The notes under the pieces were generated by a model. The model was not told the origin of the DNA and did not search any database. It worked only from the letters and a program-made list of their open reading frames with translations. A stretch of 10,764 bases of DNA. Origin: a virus. Taxonomy: Duplodnaviria > Heunggongvirae > Uroviricota > Caudoviricetes. The stretch lies in the IMG/VR virus record IMGVR_UViG_2541047501_000021, positions 1 to 10,764 of that record; one strand, given 5' to 3'. Of the stretch, positions 3,886-4,965 are shown piece by piece. How positions within the stretch are numbered: the first letter of the stretch is position 1; each line of letters opens with the position of its first letter. The translations under genes were made by a program, and so were the position numbers.

Positions 3886-3920
3886 CAAAGCCTACAATAA
3901 AAAACTGTATGCAATCAACA
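3886..3920. promoter_or_regulatory. Operator: perfect 13-bp inverted repeat AATAAAAAACTGT-N9-ACAGTTTTTTATT in the repressor/cro intergenic region, overlapping divergent promoter elements
   Basis: Left arm 3886-3898 is the exact reverse complement of right arm 3908-3920. A TAAAAT -10-like hexamer at 3957-3962 sits just before the repressor ATG; the minus strand reads TTGATT-N15-TTGTAG toward the cro-like gene. Confidence 0.6.
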
Positions 3921-3968
3921 GTTTTTTATTGTGATGCTTTTAACAGTATTTACCTGTAAAATTGAATA

Positions 3969-4370
3969 ATGATGAGCGCCCTAGAAGTATCTATGTACAG
4001 AATCAGCAAGCTTCTTCAGGAAACTGGATGGAGCCAGGCTGAGCTTGCCCGTAGAATTGGTGTGACACAACAAACTGTTCAACAATGGGTCAGCGGTAAG
4101 GCTACACCTAAAGCCTCAAGTTTGGATAAACTGGTTGAGGTTTCAGGGCATCCATTGCATTGGTTTTTATTGCCTCCTGAAGAGTGTGAGCAAATTTTCA
4201 CCCCTGACACGATGAAAATTGGTCCTCGCCAACGCGAACTGCTCCAAGCTTTTAGTGCGTTTCCTGAGGAAGACCAAGAAAAAATGCTTCAAGAAATCAA
4301 AGACAAGAAAAAATCAATGGAAGAAACCATTGCTAGGTGGCTGGCGGCACAAAAAAGCCGCCGGGCGTGA
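3969..4370 (+). CDS. paaR: XRE-family HTH repressor, DicA/cI-like; regulator of a three-component PaaR-PaaA-ParE type toxin-antitoxin operon
   Basis: 133-aa ORF with HTH WSQAELARRIGVTQQTVQQWVSG, overall DicA-like layout, divergent from the Cro-like gene and directly upstream of the PaaA-like/ParE pair. The start could instead be the ATG at 3972 or 3993. Confidence 0.8.
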   Translation: MMSALEVSMYRISKLLQETGWSQAELARRIGVTQQTVQQWVSGKATPKASSLDKLVEVSGHPLHWFLLPPEECEQIFTPDTMKIGPRQRELLQAFSAFPEEDQEKMLQEIKDKKKSMEETIARWLAAQKSRRA

Positions 4371-4397
4371 CCACAGTACAAGAAGAGGAGTTATGCC

Positions 4398-4589
4398 ATG
4401 GGTACAGCCCTTTCTCCGATAGTTTCAGAATTCGAAACTACCGAACAAGAAAACAGTTACAACGAATGGTTGCGCACTAAAGTAACGTCAAGCCTTGCAG
4501 ACACTCGCCCCGCAATTCCACATGACGAGGTAATGGCTGAAATGGAAAATCTTATTGCTCAAATTGCTGTAACTAACAAGAGCGAGTAA
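4398..4589 (+). CDS. paaA: PaaA-like antitoxin (small acidic antitoxin partner of ParE)
   Basis: 63-aa ORF containing LSPxVSEFET.EQENSYNEWLR.KV..SLAD.RPAIPHDEV, which matches my recollection of E. coli O157 PaaA2. GAGGAG lies 7 nt upstream of the ATG; its stop overlaps the toxin start (TAATG). Confidence 0.8.
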   Translation: MGTALSPIVSEFETTEQENSYNEWLRTKVTSSLADTRPAIPHDEVMAEMENLIAQIAVTNKSE

Positions 4590-4876
4590 TGTTACCCATT
4601 TTATGGCTACCGTCTGCTCGCGATGATTTGCGCCAGATCATAACTTACATCGCCAAGGAGAACCCACCGGCAGCACGTAGACTAAAAATACGCATTGAAA
4701 CATCGGTATTACCTCTATCTGAGCATCCGTACTTATATCCACCAAGCGAACGGGTTTCTGGATTGAGAGAGATCGTGACCCACCCTAACTACATAATCCT
4801 GTACAGAGTAGCTGCTTCAAGCATTGAGATTGTAAGCGTGACACATTCTCGGCGACAATTTCCCTTCTCTATCTGA
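4589..4876 (+). CDS. parE: ParE/RelE-superfamily toxin (ParE-like)
   Basis: 95-aa ORF with ParE-like motifs (LPILWLPSARDDLRQI, REIVTHPNYIILYRV, IEIVSVTHSRR), translationally coupled to the antitoxin and followed by an intrinsic terminator. Confidence 0.85.
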   Translation: MLPILWLPSARDDLRQIITYIAKENPPAARRLKIRIETSVLPLSEHPYLYPPSERVSGLREIVTHPNYIILYRVAASSIEIVSVTHSRRQFPFSI

Positions 4877-4894
4877 GTTGAACAATTTTCATAC

Positions 4895-4917
4895 TCCCTC
4901 TTTCGAGGGATTTTTTT
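4895..4917 (+). terminator. Rho-independent terminator after parE
   Basis: Stem TCCCTC (4895-4900), loop TTTC, stem GAGGGA (4905-4910), followed by T7 (4911-4917). Confidence 0.65.
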
Positions 4918-4929
4918 GCCCAAAACAAC

Positions 4930-4965
4930 AATTAAAAACTGTTGACACAAAAACAGTTTTTTATT
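4930..4965 (+). promoter_or_regulatory. Second operator copy with overlapping promoter (TTGACA at 4942-4947) upstream of the ydfA-dicF-dicB operon
   Basis: AATTAAAAACTGT (4930-4942), 10-bp spacer, ACAGTTTTTTATT (4953-4965): a near-identical copy of the 3886-3920 palindrome with one mismatch. The downstream TTGTAG matches the minus-strand reading of site 1. Confidence 0.55.

Follow-up and report, generated by a model that had tools for sequence, protein, structure and literature searches.

Paired operators at two sites of an Escherichia coli O157:H7 prophage point to a lambda-type immunity switch

The stretch of DNA analysed here, referred to as the window, is a Caudoviricetes sequence of 10,764 nucleotides (nt) (IMG/VR record IMGVR_UViG_2541047501_000021, positions 1 to 10,764). 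It carries the same inverted repeat at two sites ~1 kb apart, one between the divergent genes for a repressor and a Cro-like protein, the other beyond a toxin-antitoxin module and upstream of ydfA. Very probably, these repeats are the right (OR) and left (OL) operator sets belonging to a lambda-type immunity switch in a cryptic prophage carried by Escherichia coli O157:H7, governing the promoters of the cro side (PR), of the ydfA-dicB side (PL) and of the repressor itself (PRM). This reading leans on the layout of the elements, on its conservation, on three transcription starts and on an excess of signal at PRM, all of which were observed.

The locus and its genes

Window positions 3500-5400 are 100% identical to E. 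coli O157:H7 genomes. In strain EDL933 (NZ_CP008957.1, at ~1.25 Mb), identity extends over window positions 1094-6466 and stops at either end, so that 1-1093 and 6467-10764 form the flanks. The gene order is of the lambdoid prophage type:

594-1340, minus strand: DnaC-like replication gene
1347-2549, minus strand: O-like replication gene
3179-3604, minus strand: YdaT-family protein, CII analogue
3588-3860, minus strand: YdaS/Cro-like regulator
3969-4370, plus strand: repressor of 133 amino acids (aa) with a helix-turn-helix
4398-4589, plus strand: PaaA-type antitoxin
4589-4876, plus strand: ParE toxin
4895-4917, plus strand: terminator-like hairpin with T-run
4979-5153, plus strand: PL leader
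5154-5309, plus strand: ydfA (DUF1391), first gene of the ydfA-ydfB-ydfC-dicB operon, with ydfD after dicB

Between the divergent repressor and cro-like genes lie 108 bp. The antitoxin was recognised by its match to PF21217 (E = 5.6e-19), and the toxin by its matches to PF05016 (E = 2.9e-17) and to the ParE2 structure 5cw7 (E = 3e-36); both genes are co-transcribed with the repressor and hold the place that rexAB has in lambda. The hairpin at 4895-4917 stands at the end of this repressor operon, just before the first left operator, and is also present in Salmonella locus L014 and in locus L019.

Each repeat resolves into two 15-bp units

At site 1, the inverted repeat is perfect over arms of 15 nt, ACAATAAAAAACTGT (3894-3908) and ACAGTTTTTTATTGT (3918-3932), which are separated by a 9-nt spacer; counted as 13-nt arms, it covers 3896-3908 and 3918-3930. 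At site 2, the arms occupy 4930-4942 and 4953-4965 when taken as 13 nt long, or 4928-4942 and 4953-4967 when taken as 15 nt long; they differ by one mismatch, a 10-nt spacer parts them, and an identical stretch of 17 nt, ACAGTTTTTTATTGTAG, is shared with site 1. Two occurrences of the pattern AAAAACTGT-N8-11-ACAGTTTTT were counted in the window, and 200 shuffles that preserve dinucleotides gave none; the repeat is real, not a product of chance.

Each 15-nt arm is itself a dyad of the form ACA-N9-TGT, and we predict the operator unit to be 15 bp long, with the sequence ACA(A/G)T-N5-A(C/T)TGT. Including a third unit in the cro/repressor intergenic region, the window then holds five putative operators:

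OR1, 3894-3908: ACAATAAAAAACTGT; inside the PR spacer, overlapping the first base of the PR -10
OR2, 3918-3932: ACAGTTTTTTATTGT; abutting the PR -35 and just upstream of the weak PRM -35 region
OR3, 3943-3957: ACAGTATTTACCTGT; weaker, agreeing with OR2 at 11/15 positions; the PRM -10 begins at its last T
OL2, 4928-4942: ACAATTAAAAACTGT; the PL -35 begins at its last T
OL1, 4953-4967: ACAGTTTTTTATTGT; the PL -10 begins at its last T

From centre to centre, OR1 and OR2 are 24 bp apart, OL2 and OL1 25 bp. In all likelihood, judging by the sequences, what looks like one palindrome is therefore a pair of adjacent operators that by happenstance are inverted copies of each other in this lineage. A preliminary description of this DNA had taken each site for a single operator palindrome. 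It had rightly recognised the recurrence itself, the perfect 13-bp repeat with its 9-bp spacer at site 1 (the arms of which even extend to 15 nt) and the single mismatch and 10-bp spacer at site 2 (4930-4965); its placement of site 1 at 3886-3920 lay about 10 nt too far to the left, and the third unit, OR3, had escaped it. We also considered AAAAACTAT (3874-3882) and ACAGTATTT as outer half-sites about the dyad and discarded them, as the right one belongs to OR3 and its mirror is one base off.

Three promoters start 12 nt beyond the operators

Transcription starts were taken from the published Cappable-seq data for EDL933, which cover eight conditions and score each start by a relative read score (RRS) (Zehentner et al. 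2023, PMC10469882, supplementary tables), and were placed on the window by way of the EDL933-identical stretch 1094-6466. The three promoters are as follows:

PR, minus strand: -35 TTGATT at 3918-3913, spacer of 18 nt, -10 TAGGCT at 3894-3889, start at 3882
PL, plus strand, analogue of K-12 dicBp: -35 TTGACA at 4942-4947, spacer of 19 nt, -10 TAGATT at 4967-4972, start at 4979
PRM, plus strand: weak -35, no defined spacer, -10 TAAAAT at 3957-3962, start at 3969

By far the strongest of the three starts, genome position 1255694(-), corresponds to window 3969(+), the A of the repressor ATG, and was detected in 8/8 conditions (RRS 361-653). On the cro side, genome 1255781(+) is window 3882(-), 22 nt 5' of the cro-like ATG at 3860 (6/8 conditions, RRS 0-22), and genome 1254684(-) is window 4979(+), which leaves a 175-nt leader to ydfA (6/8 conditions, RRS 2.4-7.6). 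Predicted and observed starts coincide at PR, PL and PRM, and the distance from an operator's end to the start is exactly 12 nt in each case (PRM/OR3, PR/OR1, PL/OL1). The PRM signal exceeds those of PR and PL by ~20-fold to several hundred-fold, as is expected of a repressed lysogen. Because the start maps to the A of its ATG, the repressor mRNA is leaderless, and this holds for the exact sequence of the window. A simple promoter scan of the window called none of PR, PL and PRM, since their -10 hexamers or spacers deviate from the consensus.

Several proposals of the preliminary description can be judged against these data. The leaderless repressor mRNA that it had suggested, from the TAAAAT hexamer ending 6 nt before the ATG, is confirmed, and the starts that it had named in advance as a test, at about 3969, 3880(-) and 4975, were seen next to the repeats at 3969, 3882(-) and 4979. 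Its claim that one operator serves both the cro-side and the ydfA/dicB promoters is supported by the constant 12-nt distance and by the nine immunity types and 39 of 42 contigs described below. As to the promoter context shared by the two sites, the -35 hexamers TTGATT (minus strand) and TTGACA were assigned correctly, and TTGTAG is indeed present 15-16 nt further on; the actual -10 elements, however, are TAGGCT and TAGATT, 3 nt downstream of TTGTAG.

The same data set contains further starts at this locus. An exact copy of the YdaT box, TTGATT-N6-AATCAA (defined in PMC9986795 and PMC11879457), lies at 3594-3611 over the ydaT start codon. Its centre is ~42 nt upstream of a constitutive start at window 3645(+) (genome 1256018(-), 8/8 conditions), from which transcription runs antisense through the cro-like gene toward the repressor; box and start together look like an analogue of lambda PRE. 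Another start, at window 3851(-) (genome 1255812(+), 8/8 conditions), lies downstream of OR1, within codon four of the cro-like gene; the Cappable-seq authors assigned it to ydaT, and its transcript would lack the cro start codon. Besides, there are two antisense starts within the ParE gene, at 4629(-) (genome 1255034(+)) and 4822(-) (genome 1254841(+)), each seen in several conditions.

Operator positions are constrained in the population

A search of IMG/VR for the exact palindrome pattern turned up 69 contigs, 42 of them carrying the repressor. In 39 of these 42, the gene is flanked by two copies that both fit the pattern exactly, at a distance of 1034-1037 bp, or of 683 bp in the two of the 39 that are devoid of the toxin-antitoxin module (L049 and L060). 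A population footprint, drawn from 19 distinct variants among 40 IMG/VR contigs, showed variation in 1/45 operator columns of the intergenic region versus 38/88 of its other columns (Fisher p = 1.4e-7), and in 3/30 versus 36/80 columns at PL (p = 6e-4). The 9-nt gap between OR1 and OR2 varies freely in this population, save for the bases of the -35. At PL, the window (4948-4962) represents the minority form among the IMG/VR loci L025-L091; in most contigs, OL2 and OL1 are 9 nt apart, the promoter spacer measures 18 nt and OL1 reads ACAGTTTTTAATTGT, which inverts OL2 exactly.

Many unrelated repressor/cro cassettes occupy the place between the conserved ydaT and the conserved ydfA leader in E. 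coli. In 9/9 immunity types at this position, the type's own intergenic palindrome recurs upstream of ydfA, and for most types the best 16-mer match from the intergenic region to a PL falls on its own partner. For the window, the intergenic region agrees with its own PL at 16/16 positions versus 11/16 with that of K-12. In the K-12 prophage Qin, the operator Oc, TTGTTAGTCATAACTAACAA, sits next to dicC in the intergenic region and ATGTTAGTCATGGCTAATCT inside dicBp; locus L009 represents the PaaR2 type of prophage CP-933P. A 74-nt BLAST query hit a median of four places per genome, of which the best one is listed for each.

The layout recurs in other genera

Protein searches and contig look-ups yielded ten orthologous loci with repressor identities of 44-81%, from Salmonella, Raoultella, Klebsiella, Pluralibacter, Morganella, Arsenophonus, E. 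coli and two contigs of unidentified source; a scan of genome contigs contributed one of them, that of Arsenophonus. The operator layout is kept in the six identified genera other than Escherichia. Most loci have three ACA-N9-TGT units in the cro/repressor intergenic region, 23-26 bp apart from centre to centre; their PL, which lies downstream of the repressor operon, has a further two at 23-25 bp. A motif at the position of OR3 is present in 7/10 loci, and the one at the position of OR1 is likewise kept. In total, 37 of the 43 ACA-N9-TGT motifs in the 51 kb examined sit in these two short regions, where chance would predict ~12 over all 51 kb. Even at positions outside the search pattern the motifs agree, position 4 being always A or G and position 5 a T in 44/56 half-sites.

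The promoters follow suit. In orthologues, the last T of the distal operator opens a TTGAYN -35 and the last T of the proximal operator opens the -10; this layout recurs at PL in six orthologues, and a conserved TTGAYN is found at the position of the PR -35. The geometry of PRM (a -10-like hexamer, 6 nt, then the ATG, with no Shine-Dalgarno sequence) is shared by 8/10 orthologues, and the residues encoded from the repressor ATG onward are conserved at the N-terminus. The gap between the promoter-proximal units ranges from 8 to 10 bp across loci. In Arsenophonus (units ACAAGAAAATATTGT and ACAAGATGATCTTGT) and Raoultella (ACAAGTACAAATTGT and ACAGTTATTTCTTGT), neighbouring units are not mirror copies of each other.

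A 434-like recognition helix on a short repressor

Among solved structures, the repressor matches the 434 repressor best (E = 3e-5; 2r63 and 1per aligned), with homology over ~57 residues. Its recognition helix, TQQTVQQ (TQQTVQQW), retains the three glutamines of the 434 helix TQQSIEQ, and Q34, Q35 and Q38 are invariant in 15/15 repressor homologues. The helix of the Cro-like protein reads AQQTVWQW, and the two proteins are 54% identical across the helix-turn-helix; going by these sequences, the Cro-like protein probably reads the same sites as the repressor, as in 434 and lambda. Towards the C-terminus, the last 98 residues of the repressor are 42% identical to PaaR2, to which its N-terminal DNA-binding part does not align; identity to DicA is 28%. 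Since Pfam recognised only helix-turn-helix families and no S24 self-cleavage domain in the 133-aa protein, we place it in the short, non-cleavable class of repressors, which RecA cannot inactivate directly. The repressor gene may be the paaR1 of Hallez et al. 2010.

Across orthologues, helices of the QQ...QQ type go with ACA(A/G) operators, and those with QK or QR go with units of the ACAC...GTGT type; at the level of sequence, this pairing ties the operator type to the repressor. The repressors of phi467 and Stx2_95, which have a similar N-terminal domain, were tried as a guide to the operator and set aside, as they carry another helix (SAQSVQY) and other repeats (AATCAAG).

How the switch might work, and what else the repeats could be

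For a switch of this kind, experiments on paralogues suggest the ligand at each site, the cooperativity of dimers, the activation of PRM and the looping between OR and OL. The 133-aa repressor most likely binds each 15-bp unit as a dimer. Together, OR1 and OR2 would cover the spacer, the -10 and the edge of the -35 of PR, as would OL2 and OL1 at PL, and repressor on these O1/O2 pairs would exclude RNA polymerase from both promoters. When bound to OR2, beside the weak PRM -35 region, it probably stimulates PRM, while OR3, which overlaps the PRM core, would upon occupation at high repressor levels shut this promoter down (negative autoregulation). The Cro-like protein probably competes for the same operators with the opposite preference. 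PRM would give rise to a leaderless repressor-PaaA-ParE transcript ending at the terminator before OL2, and an octamer might bridge OR and OL, by analogy with PaaR2.

Certain observations weigh against this picture. OR3 agrees with the strong operators at just 11/15 positions. In this lineage, OR1 and OR2 mirror each other perfectly. The same is true of OL2 and OL1 in the majority variant of the population, and what sets this pair apart from the OR pair falls on the same mirrored position; such symmetry is not called for if the operators are independent. The -10 elements of PR and PL are poor and their spacers long (18 and 19 nt), so that their low signal could partly reflect weak promoters instead of repression, and both starts are still seen in 6/8 conditions. 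Lastly, the 434 operators measure 14 bp versus 15 bp here, and the comparison with 434 implies no membership in that group.

The mirror symmetry would find an explanation if each O1/O2 pair were one dyad unit of 39-40 bp for a tetramer or octamer of the repressor, with a ~1-kb loop between OR and OL, and if the symmetry had been selected for this purpose. We regard this as a doubtful extension; if true, the loop would enclose the repressor gene and the ParE module, and loop integrity, immunity and addiction would be coupled.

It is improbable that each site constitutes one long operator, namely an inverted repeat of 13-15 bp with a 9-10-bp spacer, read by a single dimer or a dyad-symmetric tetramer. 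The arms being perfect mirrors at OR, and at OL in most population variants, would suit such a site, as would the difference between the OL and OR pairs at the same mirrored position. Yet every arm has an ACA...TGT dyad of its own, a third unit stands alone at 3943-3957, and orthologues keep the units without the mirror relation of neighbours. The gap sequence is free to vary in the population and the arms are not, and a gap range of 8-10 bp would turn the half-sites of one dimer out of register. A helix-turn-helix monomer, as known from the 434 and lambda repressor-DNA complexes, contacts ~5-6 bp; a reach of 15 bp would be needed here.

There is little to commend the idea that the repeats are real operators for which the key protein in the lysogen is not the product of 3969-4370 but the Cro/YdaS-like protein alone, YdaT or a host factor. 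The near-identical recognition helix of the Cro-like protein speaks for it, as do the YdaS footprints on PaaR2's region in CP-933P and the binding of YdaT to the intergenic region in Rac. However, the start of the repressor is strong and constitutive (RRS 361-653) and that of the cro side weak, which makes the repressor the abundant protein, and across orthologues the operator type follows the repressor's recognition helix. The YdaT box, for its part, is a different sequence located elsewhere (3594-3611).

That the repeats serve as nucleic-acid hairpins (terminators, RNA attenuators or DNA cruciforms) rather than as protein sites is hardly credible: while site 2 could fold into an A/U-rich stem with a U-run just after the repressor operon, this stem contains no more than two G-C pairs and 4895-4917 already offers a proper hairpin of the terminator-like kind, conservation resides in the ACA/TGT ends of the arms and not in arm-to-arm complementarity, and transcription begins 12 nt downstream of each repeat, which makes the repeats promoter DNA that is absent from the PR, PL and PRM transcripts.

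Comparison with known switches

A close parallel to the proposed OR/OL arrangement is CP-933P, where paaR2 is leaderless, PaaR2 and YdaS leave footprints on the intergenic operators, PL933P is repressed ~100-fold, PRM is activated at low PaaR2 and the oligomer formed by PaaR2 is an octamer (Jurenas et al. 2021, PMC8630535). The two loci share the order of YdaT, YdaS/Cro-like protein, divergent region, repressor, PaaA, ParE, PL and ydfA, the leaderless repressor mRNA, operators both in the intergenic region and at PL beyond the toxin gene, a homologous C-terminal domain of the repressor (42% identity) and a close ParE homologue (ParE2, E = 3e-36). They differ in the N-terminal DNA-binding domain, which is unrelated, and in their operators: 18-bp palindromes with the consensus GTTTAGTAA, four of them equally spaced in the intergenic region of CP-933P, versus three predicted 15-bp ACA-N9-TGT units in the window. 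Measurements exist of PaaR2's binding, repression and oligomeric state, whereas binding by the repressor of the window is predicted from its sequence and by analogy.

In K-12 Qin, DicA was shown to bind Oc, to repress dicC and to activate its own gene, dicA (Yun et al. 2012, PMC3441716), and deletion of dicA induces dicBp 22-fold (Ragunathan et al. 2023, PMC10448788). As in the window, a short repressor of the non-SOS type is divergent from a cro-like gene, and one operator is found in the intergenic region as well as inside the ydfA-dicB promoter (see also Bejar et al. 1988). The repressor of Qin acts as an activator of its own gene and as a repressor at the other two promoters, as that of the window may do by analogy. 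On the other hand, no sequence like Oc, TTGTTAGTCATAACTAACAA, is present in the window, and Qin has no toxin-antitoxin module between dicA and dicBp, possesses DicF and is missing most of the 175-nt leader.

With lambda, the locus has in common a tripartite right operator over divergent PR and PRM at a spacing of 24-25 bp, a further cluster of operators at PL, on the far side of genes that share the repressor's transcript, a leaderless PRM mRNA, and a CII-like activator box paired with an antisense start inside cro. Unlike lambda, the window has a repressor without the S24 domain, two clear operators at OL, an OR-OL distance of ~1 kb versus 2.4 kb, and neither an N gene nor a recognisable nut site after PL. 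Phage 434 shares the Gln-Gln-x-x-x-Gln recognition helix, common to repressor and Cro-like protein, and its 14-bp operators of the form ACAA-N6-TTGT (PMC2504314) resemble those of the window, which start with ACAA or ACAG and end with TTGT or CTGT. The C-terminal domain of its repressor, in contrast, is LexA-like and cleavable, and that of the window's is PaaR2/DicA-like.

The arrangement as such is the textbook OR/OL plan and has already been demonstrated for two relatives at the same module, so that our understanding of such switches is unchanged by this locus. What appears to be new is the specificity, that is, a predicted 434-like reading head on a PaaR2/DicA-like body with putative 15-bp operators. 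All immunity cassettes that were examined at this locus follow the logic of K-12 DicA and CP-933P PaaR2. A further immunity specificity from among the lambdoid prophages, which are numerous in O157:H7, now has a map of three promoters with experimentally supported starts, five candidate operators, a terminator and a CII-type box, and it can guide work on the silencing of the prophage's dicB, kil and toxin genes.

The PL leader

The leader downstream of PL opens with a C-rich, G-poor tract, ACCAACCACCCACCCCGCCCCACA, and has its core at ~5009-5085. It contains two invariant blocks, CAATACnnCGAGTTA and AAGTAGCCAGCCyGAGGCrTAyGAACATGAmGGC, which follow PL in every E. coli immunity type examined and recur in Salmonella, Pluralibacter, Morganella, Arsenophonus and an Actinobacillus phage; in Arsenophonus they occur twice, each time after a repressor gene. 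In K-12 Qin and Raoultella, the leader is mostly deleted. An Rfam search of the leader gave no credible match, its consensus fold is weak (-5.35 kcal/mol) and shows next to no covariation, and the fold of the single sequence is not more stable than those of shuffles (z = +1.04). A small open reading frame (ORF) within the leader was considered and rejected, given indels that are not multiples of three and in-frame stops in Arsenophonus and Morganella. The leader could be a Rho-loading or antitermination element. In the Arsenophonus locus (L011, ~3145-3160 and ~5190-5205), CGCTCTTTAACA stands after both leader cores, a sequence that is absent from E. coli leaders and that matches the boxA antitermination consensus.

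Further features downstream

An Rfam scan of window positions 5800-6800 did not detect DicF between ydfC and dicB, where K-12 has it; the sole match in this range was STnc100 at 6594-6743, at a sub-threshold 29.3 bits versus a gathering score of 47. Further downstream, the ORF at 7232-8476 encodes 414 aa, where the O157:H7 genomes EDL933 and TR01, both among the 100% matches, have a full exonuclease gene of 823 aa. It is followed by an integrase fragment (8458-9009) and by two ORFs on the minus strand, 9591-10232 and 10314-10748, which, by their sequence, appear to be NleG effector homologues.

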